A DNA stretch of 32,000 nt, from contig NZ_CP011035.1 in the NCBI RefSeq assembly GCF_001465295.1, forward strand, positions 90,001 to 122,000. Reading direction: 5' to 3'. Position 1 is the stretch's first letter; each line of letters opens with the position of its first letter. This document shows, one piece after another, positions 2,994-22,974 of this stretch. The notes beneath the pieces were generated by a model. It ran no database searches, had not been told where the DNA came from, and saw only the letters and a program-made list of their open reading frames with translations. Made by a program: the position numbers and the translations under genes. The stretch comes from Pseudoalteromonas translucida KMM 520. GTDB taxonomy: Bacteria > Pseudomonadota > Gammaproteobacteria > Enterobacterales > Alteromonadaceae.

Positions 2994-3599
2994 GTGTGTC
3001 TCGTGTCAAACTCCACACTTAGTTACTACAATCAAAACGCACAAAGCTTTAGTGACTCAACCCTAAATGTTGATATGTCAGTGCTGTATGCTGAATTTTT
3101 GCCACATGTTACCGAACATGGTCATATTTTAGATGCAGGCTGCGGCAGCGCCCGCGATGCTGCTTATTTTAAACAGCTTGGTTTTACTGTTAGCGCGTTT
3201 GATGCCAGCGAACAACTTGCTGCATTAGCAAGCAGCTACTTACAGCAACCCGTCGACGTTAAAACCTTCCAACAGCTAGATTGCGTTAATAAATACGATG
3301 CTATTTGGTGCTGCGCTAGCTTATTGCACGTGCCAAAAGCTGAACTTCTGCAGGTGTTTTTAAACCTACAAAATGCACTAAAACCCAATGGGGTTTTGTA
3401 TGTATCGTTTAAATATGGCGACACAGAGCGTGTGCATAATGGCCGTGAATTTACCGATTTAACTGAAAATGGTTTAACGCATTTACTTAGCCATACGCAG
3501 TTAAAAGCGATTAAACAATGGCAAAGTGTTGATCAGCGCCCAGAGCGCGAAAGTGAAGTTTGGCTAAATGCGCTGATTAAAGTAGTACACGTTTTATGA
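2994..3599 (+). CDS. class I SAM-dependent methyltransferase (small-molecule/Methyltransf_11-12-like, not a canonical DNA MTase)
   Basis: 201 aa. Motif I is ILDAGCGSARDA, followed by an acidic residue at the end of beta2 (VSAFDAS) and post-motif YDAIWCCASLLHV..LKPNGVLYVSF. There is no (D/N/S)PP(Y/F/W) or PCQ/ENV DNA-MTase motif. GTG start at 2994 (AGGAG at 2986-2990), or the in-frame GTG at 3003. The stop overlaps the next start (ATGA). Confidence 0.8.
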   Translation: MCLVSNSTLSYYNQNAQSFSDSTLNVDMSVLYAEFLPHVTEHGHILDAGCGSARDAAYFKQLGFTVSAFDASEQLAALASSYLQQPVDVKTFQQLDCVNKYDAIWCCASLLHVPKAELLQVFLNLQNALKPNGVLYVSFKYGDTERVHNGREFTDLTENGLTHLLSHTQLKAIKQWQSVDQRPERESEVWLNALIKVVHVL

Positions 3600-5134
3600 T
3601 TGGAGCAATGCAGCAACAGCTCGACTTTATTGCGTATATTCAACGAATGTTAGTTGAAGGGGACTTTAGCGCAACTTATAAGTTTGCCTTGCTGCATGCT
3701 ATTGCCGATGTATGTGTAGAACAGCCGTTATTGTCAGATCAAAGTGAATTAGTAATAGAGTTACCTACACTTGCCGATAAATTAATTACCTTATATTGGC
3801 ATCATGCAATGCCGTTTCCGTCAGAACATACCGGTGAAAGCGCTCTACTTTTGCAAAACACAGGCGCGCAATCAAAAGTGATTAGCGTATTGTTTGAATG
3901 CCAACAAAACAATATTCGTAATTTACGCCAGCTAAAGCAAAGTTCATTTTACAAACCGACTTTTAATGCAGCTATGGCAACATTGAAAAGTGGTCCGCTT
4001 TGGCGTTTACAAATACTTGCCAAACAAGAAGAATGCTTTTTATACCCGCACACTAAAAACACTAAATTCATTACCTTAAATGCAGGTATCGCCAGTTGCT
4101 TTAGACGTTTTTATGATTTAGTAGTGTACTTAGCTAAAAATGCGTGGCTGCAAAAAATTCAAAGTATAAAGTACAACCAAACACTTATTGGCCCGCAAAG
4201 CCAACTGCACGACTTTTTATTTGGCTTTGATCGTAACGCACTCACAAAAGCAAAACCTGTGTTAGTAGAGCTGCAATCAAACTCATGCTTTTATTGCCAA
4301 AAGCCAATGAAAAACGATATTGAGGTCGATCACTTTATACCGTTTTCCCGCTACGCAAACGATCTTGGCCATAATTTTGTGGCTGCGCACCGCACATGTA
4401 ATAACAATAAGCGCGACTTTTTAGCTGCGCAGCAACACCGTGAGCGTTGGCAAAAGCAAAACTTGGTTGTTAACAGCCAAATTATTAATAATGAGCTAAG
4501 TGCGTATTTTCACTGCGATGCAGATAAGTCACTCGCAGTAAGCAATTGGGCGTATCAGGTGGCACAAGCCAACAACGCTAAATTATGGCTTGGAAATAAA
4601 GACCATTTTGAGCAAGCAAAACCAACCGCCGATATAGTGGCTTTCCCGCAAGCAAAACAAACAGAGTTAAATCAAGTTGCAGAGCCTGTTATTAGCTTAA
4701 AATCAACTGATGATGCGCTAAAGCTGCCGTATTTCCCCAATATTAAAATTGCTTGTGGGCATTTTAAAACAGGGGATGAGAGCGACATAGAATTAATGGA
4801 TGCGCCACTTGGTGCAGGCAAGCTCGATCCGCAAGTACACTTTTTAGCGCATGCATGGGGTAACTCAATGAATGGTGGTAAAAATCCGATTAACGATGGC
4901 GATTTACTGTTACTTGAGCTTATAACACCCGATAAAGCGGGATCGCTACGCGGCCAAATTGTCGCGATTGAGCGAGATGATATAGGTGGTGACGGGCAGT
5001 ATTTACTGCGTAAAGTTAATAAATTACCTAATGGGCAATATGAGCTAATCGCTCAAAACCCAGATTATGAAGTAATGATTGCTGATGACAGCATGCGAAC
5101 ATTCGCACGGTTTAAGCAAGTGGTTGTGGAATAA
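3596..5134 (+). CDS. three-module protein: unassigned N-terminal domain + HNH nuclease motif + C-terminal S24 (LexA/cI/UmuD-like) peptidase domain
   Basis: 512 aa. The HNH motif is at nt 4286-4420: CFYCQKPMKNDIEVDHFIPFSRYANDLGHNFVAAHRTCNNNKRDF (CxxC..DH.IP..N..H..CN..K). The C-terminus aligns by eye with lambda cI/LexA: GNSM (Ser424, nt 4865-4867) ..INDGDLLLLE.. GQIVAIE.. YLLRKV (Lys473, nt 5012-5014) ..NPDY. The upstream IKIACGHF (Cys387-Gly388, nt 4754-4759) resembles the (A/C)-G self-cleavage site. Confidence 0.8.
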   Translation: MIGAMQQQLDFIAYIQRMLVEGDFSATYKFALLHAIADVCVEQPLLSDQSELVIELPTLADKLITLYWHHAMPFPSEHTGESALLLQNTGAQSKVISVLFECQQNNIRNLRQLKQSSFYKPTFNAAMATLKSGPLWRLQILAKQEECFLYPHTKNTKFITLNAGIASCFRRFYDLVVYLAKNAWLQKIQSIKYNQTLIGPQSQLHDFLFGFDRNALTKAKPVLVELQSNSCFYCQKPMKNDIEVDHFIPFSRYANDLGHNFVAAHRTCNNNKRDFLAAQQHRERWQKQNLVVNSQIINNELSAYFHCDADKSLAVSNWAYQVAQANNAKLWLGNKDHFEQAKPTADIVAFPQAKQTELNQVAEPVISLKSTDDALKLPYFPNIKIACGHFKTGDESDIELMDAPLGAGKLDPQVHFLAHAWGNSMNGGKNPINDGDLLLLELITPDKAGSLRGQIVAIERDDIGGDGQYLLRKVNKLPNGQYELIAQNPDYEVMIADDSMRTFARFKQVVVE

Positions 5135-5136
5135 TA

Positions 5137-5408
5137 ATTGTAGCTGCGATTTTATCTCGCGCTCATAAATTGTTTTTTGCGTGAAGATTTAAAGGGTTTA
5201 AAAACCTCTATTTGAGGTTTTATCGCCGTGGGATCACACTTTATCTTCAACTTACGTTATTGATGTGAACGTAACCAGCGTAGATAGGCCATCCATGGCC
5301 AAGCTACGCTTTTTACAGCATTGCCGAAAGGGATTTAGGTACTTGGAGTTTGTCGGGAACAAAATTCCACCATGCTGTAAGCACTCACCATCAACTAAAT
5401 TTAATTTT
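5137..5408 (-). repeat. structured intergenic repeat (family A), left copy, inverted relative to the copies at 10673-11775
   Basis: By-eye alignment of 5224-5405 with the reverse complement of 11455-11650 is near-identical over long blocks (gaacgtaa.cagcgtagataggccatccatggccaagctacgcttt; gggatttaggtacttgga.tttgtcgggaacaaaattcc). The outer part 5137-5223 parallels the reverse complement of the 11650-11775 tail (aattgtag...ctcgcgct). It contains the 32-nt two-tier hairpin at 5278-5309 and the hairpin at 5201-5221. Confidence 0.75.
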
Positions 5409-5544
5409 TGATTACATATAGTTAGGTGTATTTATTTATGAACGCATGCAGGAGTTGAAGTATATTGGTTAGTAATTGTTTATTAAGTATTAGTAAATTA
5501 CTTTCTCTTAGAACTTGTTATTTTTTAAAATTAAGGAATATTTT

Positions 5545-7470
5545 ATGTTAACGTGGATTATAGATGAGCTGACCCAAAGAAGCCGACGAGGTAGAAAGTC
5601 GTTGGTTAATAATTTTAAGGTTGAAGGCTGGGCTGATGGGTATATTTTTATACGTGAGTTATTCCAAAATATTTTGGATAACCGTATTAATCCAAGTGAA
5701 CCAGCAAAAGTATTTATAAACTTTGAAAAAATAAAAACTACCGAAGCAATTAAACAATATCAGATGCTCGTTAAGCCAATACATAAGCATTTAAATGCAT
5801 CAGAAACTAATTATTCTGGTATTTCCGAAAACCCTACAATGTTGGTTATAAGAGAAGAAGGGACTACTGGCTTTAAAGGTGAATATACTGATAGTGATGC
5901 AGAGAATAGCGATTGGGCAAACTTTTTTTTTGGGGAAGCATTAGAAGCTAAATCAGGGGCTAAAAACGGAAGGGCAGGCCAAGGAAAGATAATTTATTAC
6001 ATGTTGTCACAATTAAGGTGTGTCTTTTTAGTTACTAAAAGAGCTGAGGATGGAAAACTACTTTTAATGGGCAATATTAATTTATCAAGAACTCATAAAT
6101 GTGAAGATAAAAGTTACGAGACTTTTGGTTTTTGGGCAAATAATAAAAGTGAACAGCCTTTACCATGTGAAGATGAAGAGTATATTAAAGAGTTTTGTAG
6201 AAATTTCGGTGTAGATATATCTACATTGGATAGTGGAAACGTATATTTTATACCCCAACCATCAGAAGAATTAACAGAGAGTATTATTATTCAAGCATCT
6301 GTCCATGACTTCTATTTTCCTATTTTAAGAAACAGGCTTGCAATAGAAGTTGGCAGTAAACTTATAAATAAAAATAATCTTATCTCAATTGCAAAAGCAA
6401 ATTCACACAAGTTTACAGATAAATATGACTATGCTCCATCCTCTGAATTTTTAGACTTTGTAGAGCAGTGTATTAACTTAAAAATACTTTCACCTGTAAA
6501 AAATGTTCGGTGGAGTGGAAGTGAAGATAGTTTCTATAACATTTATGATGAGCAAACAATAAAGGAAATAAAGAAAAAATTTGACAAAGAAAAAATAGTA
6601 GCTATTCAGGTACCCATATATATTTCCGAAAAAAATGGAAATAACTATACTGAAAATCTTTATGTGTACCTTAAACGTTCTGAAGTAATTGAGCAAACAG
6701 AAGAAGCTTTTATCAGGACTGATTTATTTATAGCAAAAGAAAGACGATTAAGAATTCACACAGGTAAAAATGCTTTTGGTTTGGTTGTAGCTGATGAAAG
6801 AAGCCCTAATCTGGCTGAGTTCCTTGCAAATGCAGAAGAAGCTTCTCACTTAATATGGAGTGCGAAAGAGAGTAAGGTTGAGGATAAATATAAAAATATT
6901 AAGAATACTTTAGCTAAAGTCCGTCAATCATTACCTAAGTTATTCAATCTTTTACTGGATGATGAGGAAAGTGAGGATAGGGCATTTCTTGTAGGTTTAT
7001 TATCTGTTCCAGTTGATGAGAAACTCTCAAGAAAGAAAAAGAAAAAAAAGAAAAATATAGATAATAAAGGAGGCGAAAACCCAGCTCCTACAGAGCCTAT
7101 TCCTAGTAAATTGCCAATGATTATTCTTTCAGACCTTCCTGATGTGAATGGTTTTATGGTTTCCCCTACTGAGTATATCAAAGAGCAAGATGTGCCTTTC
7201 GAGATAGAGTTAACTGCAGCTTTTGATAATGTTTTATCGGAAGGTAATCCACTAAAGCTATATACTCATCTAGACTTTGACTTTTCAGCGTTGAATCAAT
7301 TTAAAGTATATGAGAATAATTGTGAAGTGATATCTGCTGACTTGAACAAAATATTTTTAAAAGTAAACAGCAATGATTTCAAGTTTTCTATATCAGGATT
7401 TAATAGCAGCGTACCATTGAAAGTCAAATACAGAATAACTCAAGAAAATGATAAGGATATTGAGCTATGA
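5545..7470 (+). CDS. GHKL/Bergerat-fold ATPase-like protein (MORC/Hsp90/sacsin-like N-terminal domain) with an unassigned C-terminal half
   Basis: The ORF is open from TTG at 5515. ATG at 5545 is preferred (AAGGA at 5532-5536, 8-nt spacer), giving 641 aa. N-box IRELFQNILDN (E-x3-N-x2-D, nt 5653-5682); G1-like box VIREEGTTGFKG (nt 5854-5880); G2-like box NGRAGQGKIIYY (nt 5968-6000). The stop overlaps the next start (ATGA at 7467-7470). Confidence 0.72.
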   Translation: MLTWIIDELTQRSRRGRKSLVNNFKVEGWADGYIFIRELFQNILDNRINPSEPAKVFINFEKIKTTEAIKQYQMLVKPIHKHLNASETNYSGISENPTMLVIREEGTTGFKGEYTDSDAENSDWANFFFGEALEAKSGAKNGRAGQGKIIYYMLSQLRCVFLVTKRAEDGKLLLMGNINLSRTHKCEDKSYETFGFWANNKSEQPLPCEDEEYIKEFCRNFGVDISTLDSGNVYFIPQPSEELTESIIIQASVHDFYFPILRNRLAIEVGSKLINKNNLISIAKANSHKFTDKYDYAPSSEFLDFVEQCINLKILSPVKNVRWSGSEDSFYNIYDEQTIKEIKKKFDKEKIVAIQVPIYISEKNGNNYTENLYVYLKRSEVIEQTEEAFIRTDLFIAKERRLRIHTGKNAFGLVVADERSPNLAEFLANAEEASHLIWSAKESKVEDKYKNIKNTLAKVRQSLPKLFNLLLDDEESEDRAFLVGLLSVPVDEKLSRKKKKKKKNIDNKGGENPAPTEPIPSKLPMIILSDLPDVNGFMVSPTEYIKEQDVPFEIELTAAFDNVLSEGNPLKLYTHLDFDFSALNQFKVYENNCEVISADLNKIFLKVNSNDFKFSISGFNSSVPLKVKYRITQENDKDIEL

Positions 7471-8270
7471 AATTGAGTGGAATTCATACAACAAATCCAA
7501 CAAAAAGACTAAAAATCCCAAGTGATAAAATTAGTATTACTTTACATACTGACTCAGATGGTAATGAAGCTTTTGAGTTAGACTTAGTATTATTATCAGA
7601 TGTTATATTGGGAATGAATTTACAAGATGTATCTGCAAAAGTTAGTTTATATGCTTATTCTTCTAATGCTGAGCAAGAGTATGAGCTAGGAACAGTATCA
7701 AGTTTTAAAAAGCCATCAAACCTATTACTAGAAGAGCTGGACTTTGCTTCACTTAAAGGGTTTAGGTTGATAATCTTTAATGATGCTCAACAGATAATCG
7801 CGAGTAATGAAACTCTTAAGTATCGCTCAAATGATGAGCCAGAAGATGAAAACTCACTTCTAAATGTAGAGCTTCTAGATCTTGGACAGAGAATTTGGAA
7901 AGTTAAACTTTCTGATGATACCAACCCTATTTTGGTATTAAACAAATCAATTCCAAACATTAAAAATGTAGTAAAAGACAATTCAGGTATTCTTGGCTGT
8001 ATACTTCCTGAACTAACAAAAGAATGTATTGTTCATTTAGCTTTTAATAAAGCCGCTGATATATATGATAAAAGTTGTTGGCAGTACAATTGGGGGAAGT
8101 TTTTGGAGTCATTCGGAATACAATTCGAAAATATACCTGACTTACTTGAAGAGCCTAGAGAGTATTACTCATTATTAAACACTATCGATGATTTATTAGA
8201 AAGTTACTGTTTTCAGAAAAAGTTTGCTAGTAAATTTGCAAAAGATATAGGAGTAGCAATAAATGATTAA
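7467..8270 (+). CDS. hypothetical protein, 267 aa (operon gene 2)
   Basis: Long ORF in an AT-rich, stop-codon-rich context. There is a 4-bp overlap with the upstream gene and an 8-bp overlap with the downstream gene. I recognised no motif. Confidence 0.68.
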   Translation: MKLSGIHTTNPTKRLKIPSDKISITLHTDSDGNEAFELDLVLLSDVILGMNLQDVSAKVSLYAYSSNAEQEYELGTVSSFKKPSNLLLEELDFASLKGFRLIIFNDAQQIIASNETLKYRSNDEPEDENSLLNVELLDLGQRIWKVKLSDDTNPILVLNKSIPNIKNVVKDNSGILGCILPELTKECIVHLAFNKAADIYDKSCWQYNWGKFLESFGIQFENIPDLLEEPREYYSLLNTIDDLLESYCFQKKFASKFAKDIGVAIND

Positions 8271-8997
8271 TATTTCCGTTTTTAATGAGTTCGGACTTCA
8301 AATCTTTAGAGAGTATATAGAAAGTAAAGGGCTTAAAGAGTTACCAAAAGATATTTTGATAGGTGAACAGTATTCGCAAGTTATTTCAAATGATATTTTT
8401 CTTGATGAGTCAAAAAGTTTTGAAGATAGATTAATGATGGCAAAGTACCTTGATGAAACTGTATCGGCAAATATCTTTGATTTATTCGATAATAAACCAG
8501 AATTTTGGAGTTGGATTTGTTGCTTATATATTGAACAAATAATTCAGAATGGTAAATTTAGTAAACCAGAACACTATATTTATATGCCTGGTAGAATAGT
8601 CTACAGACATTCTGTTGCAACGCCTGTAAGGCTATATAGGCAGCATGGCCATGATATTTCTAGAATGCTTATCAGTAATAAAATGCATGTGTGGGGCGAG
8701 CTAGCTGAGCAAATTAATGGGCGTCAATACTTAACTCGTTCAAAAAAGTTACTTAATTTCATTTGTAATTTATATTATGACAGAAATAAAGATAGCTTAA
8801 AGCCTAGTACTGGCTCTAAAATTTCTAGTAAATTATTAAAAAATGGAGAAAGATCAAGAGCTGGTGAAGGAGGGGCAAGAAGAGTTGCTTTACAGCTAAA
8901 AAGGTTATCACTTAATTATAAAGTAGATGCAATGGATGTAACTAGCATTAATTCCCTTTTACCTTCTGAATATGAAAAGTTTATAAGTAATAATTAA
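8263..8997 (+). CDS. hypothetical protein, 244 aa (operon gene 3), with a basic C-terminal segment
   Basis: AGGAG at 8246-8250 lies upstream of ATG 8263. The start overlaps the gene-2 stop (ATGATTAA). I recognised no motif. The C-terminal third is K/R-rich (KNGERSRAGEGGARRVALQLKR). Confidence 0.68.
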   Translation: MINISVFNEFGLQIFREYIESKGLKELPKDILIGEQYSQVISNDIFLDESKSFEDRLMMAKYLDETVSANIFDLFDNKPEFWSWICCLYIEQIIQNGKFSKPEHYIYMPGRIVYRHSVATPVRLYRQHGHDISRMLISNKMHVWGELAEQINGRQYLTRSKKLLNFICNLYYDRNKDSLKPSTGSKISSKLLKNGERSRAGEGGARRVALQLKRLSLNYKVDAMDVTSINSLLPSEYEKFISNN

Positions 8998-9004
8998 GTA
9001 GAGG

Positions 9005-10546
9005 CTAATCAAGCCCTCTTTCTGAAAGGGCAATGATTACCCCCCCAATCTGCTGTGCCAAATACGGTGGCACAGCATTACCTACCTGCACATACTGGTT
9101 AGTTCTCGTCCCTTCGAAAATATAATTATCAGGAAATGTTTGTATACGTGCGGCTTCACGTACGCTTAAACTTCTGCACTGCTGTGGGTCATAATGAACA
9201 AAGTAATGCCCATCTTTTGAGATATGGCTTGTGACTGTCGTTGCATATTTATTGGCAACTTGAACCCTAAATCGATCTGAATGTGTTCCAGTATTCCAAT
9301 TAGCATGGGCCGGGGCTAGTTCTTGTGGGAAATGACGAGATTTAGGTGATAAACCTTGGATTTTTGCATATGCTGCACAGTATGAGTAACGTAGTAAGTC
9401 ATCAACCATATGGCCTCTAGTTTCATGATTTAGAACTACTTTAAGGCTTGGATCGATATACCAAGATTTTAAAGGCTCTGGCATGATAGGAGCTTTGTTA
9501 CTTAAAGCTTTCTCTTTTCTTGTTAAGCCTATTTTTGGTAAAAGGTTCAAGCTATTTGCTGATTCTTCATTAAATTGCTTTGTCAGAATTACTTTTAATT
9601 TAGCTGCATTTTTAGTAACAGCTGTTTCCCAATCTTTTGCATTATCTTTTTGTTTTGAAAAGCCGCTGCGTAAATTTGGTAAGTCACTAATAACTTGTTC
9701 TACGGTAACTTGGTGTTCGCATAGCTTTAGTGTTTCTGGGGTTGCTTTAATATCCTCACGTACACCTAGTAAAATTACACGATGCCTAGCTTGAGGTATA
9801 CCGTATTGCTCACAACGAATTAAAAAATCAGCAGAATCTTTGTATTGTGGGTCTTCTGGATTGTCAGCATCAACGACTAATGAATAGACTTTATATTTTG
9901 GAATTTTTTTGTGTTTTGTTACTGAGCCAGGGCTGCGCAAATCTTCTAATATTTGCGGAAACATGACTTGGCCGTTCACTTTTGCCGTAAGTATCCCTCT
10001 TACATTTTCCATCACAAAAATATCAGGCTTCGCTAGGCAAATTACTTCTAAGTACTCTTTGTATAAAAAGTGGCGAGCATCATCTTCTGCTATGTAACTT
10101 TTGTTACCAGCATTTCGTGAACGTCCTGCAAGTGAATAGGCTTGGCATGGAGGGCCGCCGATTAGAACTTTTGGGCCTTTATGCTTTTTGACGAGTTCCT
10201 TTATGCGTTTATGGATTAGCTTATTGTCTTTGCCTAGTTCTTTTGCACCATTTAGAGTTTCTTTATTGGCTTCTGTTGCAACATCAGGATGGAGCTTGAA
10301 TAACTCATCTCTTGTAATTTCACCATGTAGATAACGATAGTAATTATTTAATGACTGAGATTTGGTTTTGAGTGTACGATAAAACGCACGAGTTGTTAAA
10401 GTTTGATGAGCATGGACATCCTTCTCAACAGAAATACCTATTTGAAAAGGTAATTTACCATCAGAAGTTTGAGCCGCTGAAATTCCTTCCCCAAGCCCAC
10501 CAGGGCCAGCGAATAAATCAATGACCAGAATTTCACCGTTTACCAT
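9005..10546 (-). CDS. dcm: DNA (cytosine-5)-methyltransferase
   Basis: All canonical C5-MTase motifs are present in order: I DLFAGPGGLGEG, II SVEKD..A..T, IV GGPPCQAYSLAGR, VI FVMENVRGIL, VIII QARHRVILLGV, IX REAARIQTFPDNYIFEG, X VGNAVPPYLA. 513 aa. Confidence 0.93.
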   Translation of the reverse strand: MVNGEILVIDLFAGPGGLGEGISAAQTSDGKLPFQIGISVEKDVHAHQTLTTRAFYRTLKTKSQSLNNYYRYLHGEITRDELFKLHPDVATEANKETLNGAKELGKDNKLIHKRIKELVKKHKGPKVLIGGPPCQAYSLAGRSRNAGNKSYIAEDDARHFLYKEYLEVICLAKPDIFVMENVRGILTAKVNGQVMFPQILEDLRSPGSVTKHKKIPKYKVYSLVVDADNPEDPQYKDSADFLIRCEQYGIPQARHRVILLGVREDIKATPETLKLCEHQVTVEQVISDLPNLRSGFSKQKDNAKDWETAVTKNAAKLKVILTKQFNEESANSLNLLPKIGLTRKEKALSNKAPIMPEPLKSWYIDPSLKVVLNHETRGHMVDDLLRYSYCAAYAKIQGLSPKSRHFPQELAPAHANWNTGTHSDRFRVQVANKYATTVTSHISKDGHYFVHYDPQQCRSLSVREAARIQTFPDNYIFEGTRTNQYVQVGNAVPPYLAQQIGGVIIALSERGLD

Positions 10547-10672
10547 AACTTTACTACTAAATAATTAAATGACGTAGGATGATACCAGGCTTATACATGG
10601 TCTTAAAGTTTTAAATAGCAGTACTACTGCTAATAGAGCAAATTAGCAACACTATTAGAAGTTTAAACACAG

Positions 10673-10925
10673 AAGCTGAGATAATTCCCCGTGATCACGC
10701 CCGAAATTGAAATAATGATGAGTAATTTACAGCATGGATGCTGTTGAAAAGCGTAGTTTGGCCACGGATGGCCTATCTACGCTGATTACGTTCATATCAT
10801 TAATTTGAATTGAGGAAGTAGTGTGATCCTCGGGGCGCCGTGGGGTTCCAAGGGGCGGTCGGCGGTATCCACCCCTTGGTTGCCATCGCCAACGCGATAT
10901 GTATAAATAATTTGCAATTAAAAAA
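10673..10925 (+). repeat. structured intergenic repeat (family A), right copy R1 (internally shorter)
   Basis: It shares with R3 the blocks gctgaga.aa..cc-gtgatcac.cccgaaattgaa.taatgatgagtaat, the 32-nt hairpin (10751-10782), gattacgttcatatcattaatt, gtgtgatcctcggggcgc, hairpin 2 (10848..10879), ggttgcc.tcgccaacgcga and tttgcaattaaaa. Confidence 0.75.
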
Positions 10926-10995
10926 TCGTATCACGATTTAAATTTTGTTCAATTACTTGCGTAATTAACTGCTCGTAAATACCAATCTGCTGCAT
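10918..10995 (-). pseudogene. 25-codon ORF stub (MQQIGIYEQLITQVIEQNLNRDTIF*), a possible 5' remnant of a larger gene truncated at the R1 repeat
   Basis: ATG at 10995-10993 is preceded by GGGAG (reverse complement of 11004-11008). The stop TAA (10920-10918) lies inside the conserved repeat module tttgcaattaaaa. Whether the stub is a real remnant is uncertain. Confidence 0.25.
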
Positions 10996-11149
10996 TAAAG
11001 CCACTCCCTGTTTGCGAACATTCAGTTTACTAAAATACGGTACAGCTACAAGTATTAATCGTCTAAGTTACTAGTAATTAAGTATAAACGTGTGAGTTAA
11101 GTACTAGGCGAGCGAGTAATTAAAGGATGATGCTAAGAAACCCTCCCCT

Positions 11150-11435
11150 TCAACTTCACCTGAAAACACATAATTAATGAGTAATTACCTCGCATGGAGG
11201 CGAGGAAAGCGATGCTTGCACATGGATGTGCTTTCATCGCGTTTACGTTCATATTAATTTAGTGTTTAAAGATAAGTGAAATTGAGGGGCGCTGTGGGGT
11301 TCCAAGGGGCGGTCGGCGCTTTAATTTGGTAAAGAGCGCCCCTTGGTTGCCGTCGCCAACGCGATATATAACTAATATTTGCAATTAAAAGCTCAAGCGC
11401 GAGGTAAACTCCCGCCTACAATTTGAAGGCTGACG
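11150..11435 (+). repeat. structured intergenic repeat (family A), copy R2 (sequence-divergent, structure-conserved)
   Basis: It has the same module order as R1/R3. Its hairpin 1 (11219-11250, gcgatgcttgcacatggatgtgctttcatcgc) differs in both arms yet still pairs. Hairpin 2 is at 11302-11346. The tail gcgcgaggtaaactcccgcctacaat is the reverse complement of a family-B module. Confidence 0.7.
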
Positions 11436-11439
11436 CTGA

Positions 11440-11775
11440 GACAACACTCCGTGATCACACCCGAAATTGAATTAATGATGAGTAATAAGCTGCGCATGGC
11501 GGAATTTTGTTCCCGACAAATTCCAAGTACCTAAATCCCTTTAGGCAATGCGCGATAAAGCGTAGCTTGGCCATGGATGGCCTATCTACGCTGATTACGT
11601 TCATATCATTAATTACAATTGAAGAAACAGTGTGATCCTCGGGGCGCTGTGAGATTCCAAAGAGAGACCAGCGTTTGCCTTTCTTTGGTTGCCGTCGCCA
11701 ACGCGACATATAACTCAAATTTGCAATTAAAAGCCTAAGCGCGAGGTAAGCCCCTGCCTACAATTTAAAGGTTTC
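11440..11775 (+). repeat. structured intergenic repeat (family A), copy R3 (longest; best match to the left inverted copy)
   Basis: See the alignment with 5137-5408. Hairpin 1 is at 11560-11591 and hairpin 2 at 11657-11688. Confidence 0.78.
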
Positions 11776-12943: not shown

Positions 12944-12980
12944 CTCTAAAGCGCAGCGCCTCATACCCTCTTTGTGAATT
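12944..12980. repeat. family-C repeat, second copy
   Basis: Near-identical to 684-721. Confidence 0.7.
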
Positions 12981-19761: not shown

Positions 19762-21312
19762 CTATTCTTTAGTTTGCATATTTTTAGCACGCTGCTCGGC
19801 TTCGATCAGGGCTTGAGATTTAGGTTCGCGTTTTTTCTGCGCTATTTCTGGCTTTTTAGTTGAATTTGGATCCCAGCTATCATCCAGCGATAGGTTGGCA
19901 AATGGGTTGCTGTTGTCTATTTGCACATTTTGCGCTTTAGGCTCAGCTATTGGTTTTGGCTGTTGGTTTGTATCTGCTTTTATTACAGGCTTTGCTTTAC
20001 TGCCTGGTAGCGGTGCATCGGGATCAAATGTACGCACTTCGGGCTCTTTAAATTCGGGCTCGGTATTAAATGAAGTTGCTTGCTCTGTGCTGCTGTTTAC
20101 AGGGGAGTGTATATTTGTTGTTGGTTGCTGCGCAATAATAGGCTCTGGGCTGATATTAGCGGGCTCAATTGTATTTTGAGCTGGCGTTTGATTATTAATT
20201 GCTGCTGGCGCTTGTTGAGTAACCTGTTGCTGACGCTGCTTTTTAGTAGGCAGTGGTGCATCGGGATCGAACATGCGTACTTCTGGCTCGGCAAAGTCGC
20301 TGGCATTTTTGATTCGCTCTAAGGTGTTTTTAGCCGCGGCTTCAAACTCCGCGGTATTGGGCTCTGGTTTTGTTTTGGGCTTTTCATTACTAAATGTTGT
20401 ATTGGCTGTTTTAGCTACGGTTTCTGGCTCGCTAGTACTTGCTTGTGGTTTTGCCAATGCCGCATCAATTTGCTGCATTGAAACCGGCTCAGCCGCAGGT
20501 TGTGCTGTTGTCGTATTTTGTATATTTACGGCGCTAGGGCTTGGCTTAACTGTCGATTTAACTGCCGATTTAGTTACTTGTTCAGTTACTTGTTTAGTAA
20601 CGGATGTGGTAGCAGCTGGGCTAGTTGGCAGTACTGTTGCCACATCAGAATTACTTTGTTTAGCTCGGCGCATGCGTACTAAAACCATTACCCCAATAAG
20701 TACTATTAGCAATAATAATAAGCTGGGTAGCAGTAGTGAGGCGGCGCTTTCGCTGTTTATTTTTGATACTGGCGCAGGTTTTACACTCGCTGGTTTTTGC
20801 GCAGCTGCGATGGGATCTGCGCTTACTTCTGTAGCGTTTGCCTGTGTACTTTCAGCCGCCGGATTTTTTATATCAGTGCTTTTTACATCCGAGCTTTTTA
20901 TATTGGCAACGGGTTCATCAGTCGTTACTTGGCTTGTTTGACTAGGGTTTGCTTGTGGCTCGGTATTAATACTAGCGGTATTGTTTGCCTCAGAGTGTGT
21001 TTTTAAAGGCTCAACAATAGGCGTTGGAATAGACTCAGTAACCGGCTCAGTAATAAGCTCACGCAGTGCGTTCTGGGGCTCTGGATCGTTAACAATAGTA
21101 TGCGGTTTTGGCTGGGTTGGTGTTACTACCGGCTTATTGCAATTTTTATTATAGTCGCGCGCGGCATTACGGTAGCTGCGGCCCGTTTTATTATTACTGT
21201 GCTGCTGCATTTCTTGTTTTATAAGTATGCACATAGCTTGGTTATAGGCTGCGCTATTAAAGCTATAAAATAGGGCAACACAAAGGGTCAGGCGTGTGAG
21301 TATTTTTATCAT
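19762..21312 (-). CDS. low-complexity P/T/Q/A-rich protein with a signal peptide, one central TM helix and a duplicated EPEVRxFDPDAPLP motif
   Basis: 516 aa. The N-terminal signal-like segment is MIKILTRLTLCVALFYSFNSAA. The TM segment is LLLPSLLLLLIVLIGVMVLV followed by RMRRAK. Two copies of EPEVR(M/T)FDPDAPLP are present. The long opposite-strand ORFs here are compositional artefacts. Confidence 0.7.
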   Translation of the reverse strand: MIKILTRLTLCVALFYSFNSAAYNQAMCILIKQEMQQHSNNKTGRSYRNAARDYNKNCNKPVVTPTQPKPHTIVNDPEPQNALRELITEPVTESIPTPIVEPLKTHSEANNTASINTEPQANPSQTSQVTTDEPVANIKSSDVKSTDIKNPAAESTQANATEVSADPIAAAQKPASVKPAPVSKINSESAASLLLPSLLLLLIVLIGVMVLVRMRRAKQSNSDVATVLPTSPAATTSVTKQVTEQVTKSAVKSTVKPSPSAVNIQNTTTAQPAAEPVSMQQIDAALAKPQASTSEPETVAKTANTTFSNEKPKTKPEPNTAEFEAAAKNTLERIKNASDFAEPEVRMFDPDAPLPTKKQRQQQVTQQAPAAINNQTPAQNTIEPANISPEPIIAQQPTTNIHSPVNSSTEQATSFNTEPEFKEPEVRTFDPDAPLPGSKAKPVIKADTNQQPKPIAEPKAQNVQIDNSNPFANLSLDDSWDPNSTKKPEIAQKKREPKSQALIEAEQRAKNMQTKE

Positions 21313-21381: not shown

Positions 21382-22848
21382 CTACTCAATTACCATTAGA
21401 CTGCGATATTCGTCGTAGGCAAATTGATCGGTCATGCCGCTTATATAATCTTGAATTAACCGGCAGCGGTAATAAAACTCATAGGCGGTAAAGTGATCAG
21501 GCTCTTCTTGCATAGCATCTATGGCGTGCTGATAGCTGTTTAAGTGCTTTTTAGAAAGCTTTTTAACCAGTCGCGATTCTATTAATAAGCGCGAGTCGCC
21601 ATTGAGCGCACGTTTAAAATCGTCACTGCTTAATAATAGCAGTGGTTTGTAGCAATCGAGCAGGCCGTTAATAATACGATAGCCTTGTAGTTCGAGTTTT
21701 TCTACTTCTTTGTTCGAAAATACATACTCAAGCGCCACTTGTTTAAGGGTTATGGTGAGTGCGTGTAAATAGCTGCGATCCTCAAGTAGTGCTTGGTTAA
21801 AATCGCCATGATAAATGGGTTCTATATGTTTAATAAAGCGTTTAGCCGCATGATTAACTAACGGATGCAGCAGCGCTACGCGTAAGTATATAAAAAATTC
21901 ACTATTAAAATTATAAGGTTGTGCGCGGGCACGCTCAAGTGCGTAGTCTACGGCTTTATTTACAAAATCTTGATGTTGGCAGTCGTCGATAGTGAGGTTT
22001 ATAAGTACTTTTGTATAATGACTTTTAAGCTTTTGGCATAATAGCTCGGTGCTTATTATGTCTTTTTCTACGGCGTCTTCTATATCGGCTATGCAATAGG
22101 AAATATCATCGGCGGCTTCCATAATATAACTTGCGGGGTGGCGGCAATACGGCTGAATTTCAAGCTCAGTTTGTAGTGCCTCTACAAAGTTTTTTTCGCT
22201 GTAGTAGTAACCAACCTTTTTCATTAAATAGCTTTTATTTTGTGGTATCTCTTTTTTGTCGAGCGCTGCAGGGCGGGTATACTTTAAAATACCGGCACTT
22301 TGGCTGTAGGTTAAATTAAGTAATTGTAATGAATGAATAATACGTATGCCTTGGGCGTTGCCTTCAAAGCTGCAAATGTCGTGTGCTAGGCTTTTAAAAA
22401 CAACCCCAATACCAGAGTTAGGCTGTTTACAGCGCTCGGGCGTTACACTTGCTAAATTATTATTAAACCAATGGTTTATGGCGGCTTCACCAAAGTGACC
22501 AAACGGCGGATTGCCTATATCGTGCATTAGGCAGGCCATTTCAACTAGGCTTTCTAACGGCCGCTCTAGCTCGGTGAGCCCGTAGTCTTGCTGTTGCTGA
22601 TAACTTAGTGATGCAAAAATACGTTGTACTATAAAGCGCCCTACTTGTTGTACTTCTAACGAGTGGGTAAGGCGTGAACGTACCGCGGCGTTGCGCTCTA
22701 GCGGAAACACTTGGGTTTTTTGTTGTAGGCGACGAATAGCGGCGCTGTTTATAATTCGGCCCCGATCGCTCTCTAGTGCCATTTGTAAGTTAGCGGTAGT
22801 GCGATACATACGTGCGGGGGTTATTTTTTTACTAAAATCGATCATCAT
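21382..22848 (-). CDS. dgt: deoxyguanosinetriphosphate triphosphohydrolase (HD domain), Dgt orthologue
   Basis: ESDRGRIINSAAIRRLQQKTQVFPLERNAAVRSRLTHSLEVQQVGR and LMHDIGNPPFGHFGEAAINHWF are nearly identical to E. coli Dgt as recalled. I moved the start to ATG 22848 or 22845 (MMIDFSKK; AAGGA upstream) to match the E. coli N-terminus MAQIDFRKK. Confidence 0.9.
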   Translation of the reverse strand: MMIDFSKKITPARMYRTTANLQMALESDRGRIINSAAIRRLQQKTQVFPLERNAAVRSRLTHSLEVQQVGRFIVQRIFASLSYQQQQDYGLTELERPLESLVEMACLMHDIGNPPFGHFGEAAINHWFNNNLASVTPERCKQPNSGIGVVFKSLAHDICSFEGNAQGIRIIHSLQLLNLTYSQSAGILKYTRPAALDKKEIPQNKSYLMKKVGYYYSEKNFVEALQTELEIQPYCRHPASYIMEAADDISYCIADIEDAVEKDIISTELLCQKLKSHYTKVLINLTIDDCQHQDFVNKAVDYALERARAQPYNFNSEFFIYLRVALLHPLVNHAAKRFIKHIEPIYHGDFNQALLEDRSYLHALTITLKQVALEYVFSNKEVEKLELQGYRIINGLLDCYKPLLLLSSDDFKRALNGDSRLLIESRLVKKLSKKHLNSYQHAIDAMQEEPDHFTAYEFYYRCRLIQDYISGMTDQFAYDEYRSLMVIE

Positions 22849-22974
22849 CTTGTCCTTTTGTAAGCTGATGACAGGCATAGTTTTAGCGCATCGTCATAGG
22901 TTTTTCATTAATTTGGTTTAATCTATCAGTTTGTATCTTAAATTAATATATTGCTTTAAGATCGAATAACAAAG

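Follow-up and report, generated by a model that had tools for sequence, protein, structure and literature searches.

A Predicted Methylation-Guarded GHKL ATPase Module in Pseudoalteromonas translucida KMM 520, with Relatives in Distant Bacteria

Known Systems and the KMM 520 Locus

Prokaryotic MORC and paraMORC1-5 ATPases, which combine GHKL and S5 domains, have been predicted to serve, in linkage with cytosine methylases and Vsr, as components of restriction-modification (R-M) systems (Iyer, Abhiman & Aravind 2008, PMC2292703). Their operons are typified by superfamily II (SFII) helicases together with nucleases of the restriction endonuclease (RE) fold, HNH or HKD types, and the paraMORC2 group is defined by a conserved ExxxH in the C-terminal part of the S5 domain (PMC2292703). 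Here we describe a four-gene locus in a 32,000-nucleotide stretch of chromosome II of Pseudoalteromonas translucida KMM 520 (the whole of which is called the window below), where three overlapping genes, g1, g2 and g3, converge on a gene for a C5 cytosine DNA methyltransferase. It is best read as varying the type of paraMORC-linked R-M system that the 2008 work predicted, with an ATPase distantly related to PDC-M33A, subunit A of a candidate system in PADLOC. We predict, with a probability of roughly 0.55, that it constitutes a horizontally acquired, methylation-guarded, ATP-dependent, restriction-like defence module.

As in the paraMORC R-M operons, a GHKL + S5 ATPase is linked in this family to a cytosine methylase and Vsr, in a sporadic and laterally mobile arrangement. 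The ATPase, g1, carries an invariant E431-x3-H435 that ends its predicted S5-like domain and corresponds to the ExxxH motif of paraMORC2, which provides a lead for placing g1 in that group. Unlike the predicted operons, most of the loci collected here are without an SFII helicase or a known nuclease, and the partner proteins (g2, g3 and the g0 that precedes g1 in many relatives) have no known domains.

Among named defence systems, scans of g1-g3 and of diverse g0-g3 homologues against PADLOC, Pfam, NCBIfam and PHROGs gave only a distant match to PDC-M33A. The window’s g1 matches this profile at 1.9e-19 over residues 36-294, which is the GHKL half only, and seven of seven diverse g1 homologues match it as well (best 2.1e-29); with a length of 627, the profile is about as long as g1. 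The likeness ends there, as the window’s g2 and g3, together with the g0, g2 and g3 of six other loci, match no PADLOC model, and PDC-M33 is itself an unvalidated, guilt-by-embedding candidate. The initial annotation, made from the letters of the DNA, had proposed an undescribed defence system. It is true that no named system matches, but the term is too strong given the 2008 paraMORC R-M prediction (PMC2292703), the ExxxH of g1 and the match to PDC-M33A. Literature searches gave no description of PDC-M33, of this operon, or of a GHKL/methylase defence system.

The effectors of BsuMI, NgoAVII/CglI, Type I/III, BREX and DISARM class 2 systems include McrB-like AAA, PLD/B3, SNF2/DrmA-D, PglZ, BrxL and HsdR/Res proteins, none of which was detected here in a PADLOC scan. 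What the locus shares with all of these systems is a methylase and a multi-protein, ATP-dependent effector, the latter being predicted. It further shares with DISARM class 2 a methylase that PADLOC scores as DrmMII-like (6e-98), and with Type I/III systems a methylase that is exchangeable relative to the effector genes. A methyltransferase with catalytic motifs likewise recalls classical Type II R-M systems, but no endonuclease is recognisable, and an indirect test did not find the co-evolution of restriction and modification genes. Finally, the predicted GHKL + transducer architecture of g1 resembles that of the Topo VI-B, MutL and MORC clamps. Unlike Topo VI-B and MutL, the module has neither a partner of the Spo11/Toprim type nor the C-terminal endonuclease domain of MutL, and the resemblance would be one of mechanism by analogy rather than of membership.

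The ATPase, Its Partners and the Methylase

The three genes of the trio overlap successively by 4 bp (ATGA, at g1/g2) and by 8 bp (ATGATTAA, at g2/g3), and the stop codons of g3 (8995-8997) and of the convergent methylase gene (9005-9007) are spaced by 7 bp, all as first described from the sequence and now verified from the coordinates of the open reading frames (ORFs) and the junction sequences. Existing annotation lists g1 (PTRA_b0097), g2 (PTRA_b0098, 100% identity) and g3 (PTRA_b0099) each as a ‘hypothetical protein’; the methylase is ALS34633.1.

Membership of g1 in the GHKL superfamily is supported by its motifs and its predicted structure, at the superfamily level and no finer, since the TM-scores are low. 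In an alignment of 13 g1 sequences, the N box (E38-x3-N42-x2-D45) and the G2 box (G142-x2-G145-x-G147-K148, or GRAGQGK in the window) are invariant. The G1 box is a variant, E104-E-G-T-T-G109-F-x-G112, with Glu for Asp and one extra residue relative to D-x-G-x-G, and its residues E104, G109 and G112 are likewise invariant, as are F426-L-A-N-A-E431-x2-S-H435 (FLANAEEASH) and D577-F-D579. The AlphaFold2 model of g1 (predicted local distance difference test, pLDDT, 77; predicted TM-score, pTM, 0.70) comprises a GHKL domain (residues ~1-300), a beta/alpha domain (~300-470), a disordered linker rich in Lys (474-521) and, at the C-terminus, a beta-sandwich. Its Foldseek matches in the PDB are Methanosarcina mazei Topo VI-B (3.5e-7), the Hsp90 N-domain (5e-4), the Topo II ATPase (~7e-4, with ~500 aligned columns over GHKL + transducer), MORC3 (6.7e-3) and MutL (2e-2), with full-length TM-scores of 0.26-0.30 and sequence identities of 8-10%. 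The GHKL/Bergerat fold and the N-box and G2-like motifs initially read in gene 1 are borne out by alignment, model and structural search; the G1-like motif also read there is the variant box given above. Profile and sequence searches of Pfam, NCBIfam, PHROGs and the PDB gave no match to g1, nor did any HATPase-type model of Pfam at E<=0.1. Inspected by eye, g1 does not carry the MORC signature GhXhhpXXRhl; the nearest stretch, F411-G-L-V-V-A-D-E-R, has its Arg out of register and unconserved.

The Lys-rich linker of g1 (SRKKKKKKKN) is coded at 7030-7055 by an A-rich tract with an A8 run. It is kept in most aligned homologues, the most distant excepted, and is probably functional; the A8 homopolymer could allow slippage.

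Genes 2 and 3 had been reported to lack any recognisable motif, and searches with single sequences and with profiles bear this out: Pfam, NCBIfam, PADLOC, PHROGs and PDB sequences were all blank for both. Conservation in g2 is concentrated in an N-terminal (H)TTNPT motif, an LGE-x2-W and a few prolines, a pattern with no acidic or His residues of enzyme type. In g3, the conserved residues are W82, W84, Y114-R115-H116, E149-Q150, G203, R206-R207 and E236, with W82, W84, H116, G203, R206, R207 and E236 listed as invariant, and the AlphaFold2 model has a pLDDT of 88.5 and a pTM of 0.84, with a fold that Foldseek leaves unmatched (best E 1.5 in the PDB and 3.8 in BFVD). No endonuclease of the PD-(D/E)xK, HNH, GIY-YIG, PLD or half-pipe type was found in g1-g3 by profiles, or in g1 and g3 by Foldseek. 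Judged from conservation, candidate catalytic sites may lie in g1, at E431-x3-H435 or D577-F-D579, or in the g3 cluster H116/E149/E236/R206-R207. A split partner of the Topo VI-A/Spo11 type, prompted by the top match to Topo VI-B, was rejected because g3 has no fold match in the PDB and g2 no conserved acidic residues.

The methylase had been credited with all ten canonical C5 motifs, and the six that were checked are present: I (FAGPGG, residue 12), IV (PCQ, 133), VI (ENV, 180), VIII (QARHR, 252), IX (463) and X (GNAV, 489). Its profile matches are PF00145 (3e-45) and TIGR00675 (135 bits, cutoff 100.65). A simple scan placed a promoter-like site for the gene, TTAAGA-16-TATCAT, at 10606-10579 on the minus strand. 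No palindrome is convincingly avoided in the 32-kb window, which is too short for such a test; the lowest is the cytosine-free TATA (z ~ -3). Depletion of GGWCC was considered as a clue to methylase specificity and was rejected, as it was seen under a mononucleotide shuffle and gone under a Markov expectation.

Upstream of the methylase start, the sole segment conserved in three loci (the window, L012 and L010) is ATCATACC(A/C)GG(C/T), at ~10585-10600 of the window. The promoter-like -10 element overlaps this segment, in which there is a CCWGG or CCCGG site, and methylation-dependent autoregulation of the methylase is conceivable, if entirely speculative.

Conservation of the Module across Genomes

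A word-indexed search returned only 13 relatives of g1, and family size was taken from an exhaustive profile search, in which 4,063 cluster representatives pass E<=1e-3 and 1,191 of them pass E<=1e-30. Among the matches listed (150), most g1 relatives are full length at 600-670 aa, with a few shorter fragments. Five members of the family were sampled, and all five are accompanied by g2, g3 and a methylase. Pattern-based locus searches gave two loci in genomes and eight in metagenomes. In total, 28 loci (labelled with L numbers) were compared using hidden Markov models (HMMs) built from the first locus set, and the tallies below refer to the 15 non-redundant, complete loci whose flanking DNA was long enough.

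The order g1-g2-g3 is kept in 15/15 loci, where the ORFs overlap or abut; identity to the window lies between 19% and 80%, depending on the protein and domain. In 14 of the 15, a C5-methylase gene stands next to the trio, whether convergent, upstream or co-directional. Synteny of the trio and its linkage to a methylase extend well beyond KMM 520. Two further genes are common: a conserved gene of ~75 aa, g0, lies directly upstream of g1 in nine loci (consensus KF..LAE.RV.KAIK.I.LIGNLSN..NY.Y...KIF), and Vsr is nearby in nine. In L015/L016 and L025, Vsr shares the operon and immediately follows g3 or the methylase. The initial description of the cassette as trio plus methylase is accurate for the window, but the unit is usually larger.

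The module recurs in distant bacteria and probably in an archaeon. Its hosts comprise a gammaproteobacterium (the window), Hyphomicrobiaceae and Lentisphaeria metagenome-assembled genomes (MAGs) and an alphaproteobacterial MAG, and one contig with the module has an archaeal-looking context with Hjc and TrmB. Its contexts are defence islands. Related loci have a TIR neighbour on an element resembling an integrative and conjugative element (ICE) and, elsewhere, SMODS/SLATT/KAP neighbours. In L026 (1424-6996) and L028 (521-3535), a NERD + UvrD-helicase protein of 1,004-1,321 aa lies immediately 5′ of g1, in g0’s place, and L026 has a GmrSD_N (DUF262) protein in addition, which suggests that the trio can take on accessory modules of the nuclease-helicase kind.

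The TIR gene belongs to a wider set in L004/L005 (1-3061), where the ICE-like element (AlpA, resolvase, TrwC relaxase) carries dCMP-deaminase-like, HMUDK_hel and thymidylate-synthase-like genes beside the module. Together they recall the genes of pyrimidine hypermodification.

Co-evolution was assessed from pairwise identities across 12 loci. The identities of the g1 domains, g2 and g3 are mutually correlated at 0.85-0.95, whereas those of the trio and the methylase are correlated at only 0.15-0.46, and the target recognition domain (TRD) of the methylase follows the trio at 0.15-0.35. For example, the window and L010 are 79% identical in the g1 GHKL domain, 47% in the methylase and 39% in its TRD. 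The methylases moreover fall into at least two groups by score against an HMM from the closer loci. On these sequence comparisons, high within the trio and low toward the methylase, the trio appears as one inherited unit and the methylase as its replaceable partner. Exchange of the methylase among trios that are closely related makes it more likely, by analogy with the logic of Type I, Type III and BREX systems, that the trio is a generic motor or effector licensed by methylation state than that it is a Type II enzyme whose own specificity matches that of the methylase.

In KMM 520, the cassette has a foreign base composition. G+C amounts to 32.5% in g1, 31.2% in g2, 30.9% in g3 and 38.9% in the methylase, against 41-44% in the flanking genes, and G+C at third codon positions (GC3) to 21-27% in all four cassette genes, against 36-47% in the flanks. 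The AT-rich block initially noted is thus real, but the 42-53% then given for the adjacent HNH gene is too high, its overall value being 40.9%. At 90% identity, the clusters of g1, g2, g3 and the methylase hold the KMM 520 protein and at most one metagenome fragment, and the flanking PTRA_b0096 (an HNH-S24 fusion) and PTRA_b0101 (SEC-C) are common to many Pseudoalteromonas. The GC3 contrast and the strain-restricted clusters together indicate that the block was horizontally acquired. At the syntenic position in Pseudoalteromonas sp. HL-AS2, beside the same SEC-C/GST/DoxX/LysR/gshA block, SIR2, SLATT, DUF3427, NERD and AbiEii/AbiGii genes are present instead of the cassette, which identifies the site as a strain-variable defence island.

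Proposed Function and Alternative Explanations

In the proposed mechanism, the C5-methyltransferase would mark host DNA, and g1 would act as a dimerising GHKL ATPase built like a Topo VI-B/MORC/MutL clamp. Together, g1, g2 and g3, joined by g0 in most relatives, would form an ATP-driven complex that acts on DNA without the mark by cutting or blocking it. We infer the formation of the complex, its targeting of unmethylated DNA and its effector chemistry, and the case is made credible jointly by obligate synteny, methylase linkage, defence-island context, the large unannotated family and a subunit of unmatched fold. It is possible, although we hold it to be somewhat doubtful, that the module represents a new class of ATP-dependent, R-M-like immunity. 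In such a class, a generic g1 clamp with two or three partners of no known fold (g0, g2, g3) would read the mark of an interchangeable methylase and destroy or silence unmarked DNA with an active site of no known nuclease. The class would take in more than 1,000 clusters at 50% identity, bacterial and probably also archaeal, and would be found in no annotation resource.

Several observations weigh against a restriction-like defence module. Neither Pfam, NCBIfam, PADLOC, PHROGs and PDB profiles for g1-g3 nor Foldseek for g1 and g3 revealed a nuclease, helicase or other effector domain, and co-evolution of trio and methylase was not seen, a poor fit to a classical Type II pair. L014, on a Lentisphaeria chromosome (5905-11501), is the one exception to the methylase linkage: it combines Vsr and an intact g1-g2-g3 with no more than a fragment of the methylase, in whose stead stands an HNH-like gene of 251 aa. 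This is awkward for a trio that would kill unmethylated self DNA. Farther downstream, at 1.5-4 kb, are an N4/N6 methylase and a Type I S-like gene. No relatives were found in phage records or IMG/VR viral contigs, and those on plasmids are only distant GHKL-domain matches on three haloarchaeal plasmids, for which reasons phage or plasmid carriage was rejected. Within the window, tblastn with g0 found no g0, no Vsr was found in the first 16 kb (the extent scanned), and a simple scan found no consensus-type promoter upstream of g1 on the plus strand.

Lacking g0, Vsr and a recognisable promoter, the KMM 520 copy may be weakly active or inactive. A stronger form of this idea, which applies to this strain only and is compatible with restriction-like defence, is that the copy is a decaying remnant in which the methylase is active as an orphan-like Dcm and g1-g3 are silent or crippled, having lost g0, Vsr and the original upstream region by rearrangement at the flanking repeats. 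The closest relatives by g1 identity (L023, 82%; L012, 75%; L010, 73%) all have g0, and L012 has Vsr beyond the methylase as well. DNA homology with L012 and L010 starts only at the ribosome-binding site of g1 and reaches ~10590 (a conserved ATCATACCAGGC), ~45 bp upstream of the methylase start, before it ends. Such a copy would account for these exact breaks at the g1 ribosome-binding site and just past the methylase promoter, for the repeats that abut both ends of the block, and for a promoter-like site before the methylase and none of consensus type before g1. We nevertheless find it unlikely, as the ORFs of g1, g2 and g3 are all intact and full length in the window with their invariant residues preserved, five other complete loci are also without g0, which may then be dispensable, and the promoter scan was crude.

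It is also conceivable that unmethylated DNA is excluded without a nuclease. Here, the g1 clamp with g2 and g3 would load on such DNA and, in the manner of MORC, compact it, trap it topologically or block its replication or transcription, leaving it uncut; any degradation would be left to host nucleases or, at some loci, to the accessory NERD-UvrD proteins. The clamp-type GHKL + transducer architecture and Lys-rich linker of g1 would suit this role, as would the addition of NERD-UvrD genes in only some loci and the finding of a nuclease fold or motif in none of the three proteins. The last point is weak evidence, however, and an unrecognised active site could reside in the novel fold of g3, with its invariant His, Glu and Arg, or in the invariant ExxxH and DFD motifs of g1; on balance, we consider this exclusion mechanism rather improbable.

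Least probable is a repair role, in which g1, as a MutL analogue, would with g2 and g3 assist Vsr in very-short-patch repair of the T:G mismatches that arise by deamination of the 5-methylcytosine which the linked methylase makes: E. coli MutL does interact functionally with Vsr (discussed in PMC2292703), Vsr is near the trio in 9/15 loci and in its operon in L015/L016 and L025, and L014, the sole locus without a full methylase, retains it, but 6/15 loci, the window included, have trio and methylase without Vsr, Dcm-Vsr pairs are common beside any C5-methylase R-M system, defence-island context and NERD-UvrD and GmrSD neighbours indicate conflict functions, and no mismatch-recognition domain was detected.

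Boundaries and Neighbouring Features

The features of the acquired block and its margins are collected in Table 1.

Table 1. Features of the predicted defence module and its boundaries (window positions).
Feature	Position	Strand	Basis
Leftmost element: partial inverted TwoAYGGAY-like copy	5231..5411	-	inverted-repeat arm and RF01731 match
AT-rich leader 5′ of g1, at the place of g0 in relatives	5412..5544	+	homology, tblastn, promoter scan
g1, 641 aa: predicted GHKL ATPase with S5/transducer-like region, Lys-rich linker and beta-sandwich	5545..7470	+	motifs, AlphaFold2, Foldseek
g2, 267 aa: protein without assigned function, (H)TTNPT motif	7467..8270	+	synteny, conservation
g3, 244 aa: confident model, fold unmatched	8263..8997	+	AlphaFold2, Foldseek, conservation
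C5 cytosine DNA methyltransferase, 513 aa	9005..10546	-	PF00145, TIGR00675, DrmMII, motifs
Methylase promoter region and right limit of acquired block	10547..10676	-	promoter-like site, homology limit
Right boundary: three direct TwoAYGGAY-like copies, each followed by a GC-rich hairpin repeat	10677..11740	+	RF01731, repeats

The inverted repeats that were initially seen to bracket the block are real, but they are positioned just outside the limits then given and belong to a genome-wide repeat family rather than forming unique cassette ends. The longer pair, 5231-5375 and 11494-11638, extends over 145 nt with 88% complementarity, and a shorter one joins 5231-5313 to 10747-10829. Their arms are copies of a multi-copy element that matches the TwoAYGGAY RNA of Rfam (RF01731). 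On the left is one partial, inverted copy (5236-5341, minus strand), whose 39.6 bits fall slightly below the gathering score of 43; on the right are three direct copies on the plus strand, at 10677-10843 (59.5 bits), 11137-11297 (51 bits) and 11497-11635 (30.7 bits). An integron cassette was rejected on these grounds, as the flanking repeats match TwoAYGGAY RNA rather than attC, and the left copy is oriented opposite to those on the right. The right boundary also holds the direct-repeat families D1-D4.

After each of the TwoAYGGAY copies on the right comes a second repeat, at 10832-10923, 11286-11429 and 11641-11771, which consists of a GC-rich, hairpin-like unit (GGGGCGCYGTGGGGTTCCAAGGGGCGGTCGGCG ... 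TTGGTTGCCRTCGCCAACGCGA) and a conserved tail of ~87 nt. The two repeats form a composite unit of ~250-300 bp that recurs every ~340-460 bp. TwoAYGGAY is also found at 9474-9640 and 9882-10048 of L029, within the variable defence island that Pseudoalteromonas sp. HL-AS2 has at the syntenic position, and copies of the element may mark points at which defence cargo recombines or inserts. In addition, a direct repeat of 33 nt (94% identical) flanks the whole variable region, with its copies 12.3 kb apart: one, at 689-721, lies downstream of an ABC-F gene and the other, at 12948-12980, between the SEC-C and GST genes.

Other genes in the window deserve brief mention. At 2994-5134 on the plus strand, a class I S-adenosylmethionine (SAM) methyltransferase gene with a weak PADLOC mad2 match (1.7e-12) overlaps by 4 bp the next gene, whose 512-aa product joins an HNH nuclease with an S24 peptidase domain of the LexA-like kind. 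Other Pseudoalteromonas conserve the two genes, which may represent a separate, SOS-linked defence or toxin module. Farther along, an ORF of 516 aa on the minus strand (19762-21312) has no Pfam match and has direct repeats inside it (20006-20056 and 20249-20299). HL-AS2 has a counterpart that bears the annotation ‘cell surface protein’, and a conserved dGTPase gene (21382-22878) adjoins the ORF in the window.

Significance

The exchangeable methylase suggests that the specificity of such a module can be re-set by a swap of methylases, as in Type I and Type III systems, a property that may also serve engineering. Should the module prove to restrict DNA, a large unannotated family would join methylation-based immunity, one that has no coverage in Pfam, NCBIfam or PHROGs and that PADLOC matches only distantly, through g1. 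It would open to experiment the 2008 prediction that MORC-like GHKL ATPases of prokaryotes are R-M components, and it would bear on how the MORCs of eukaryotes came to act on methylated or unmethylated chromatin.

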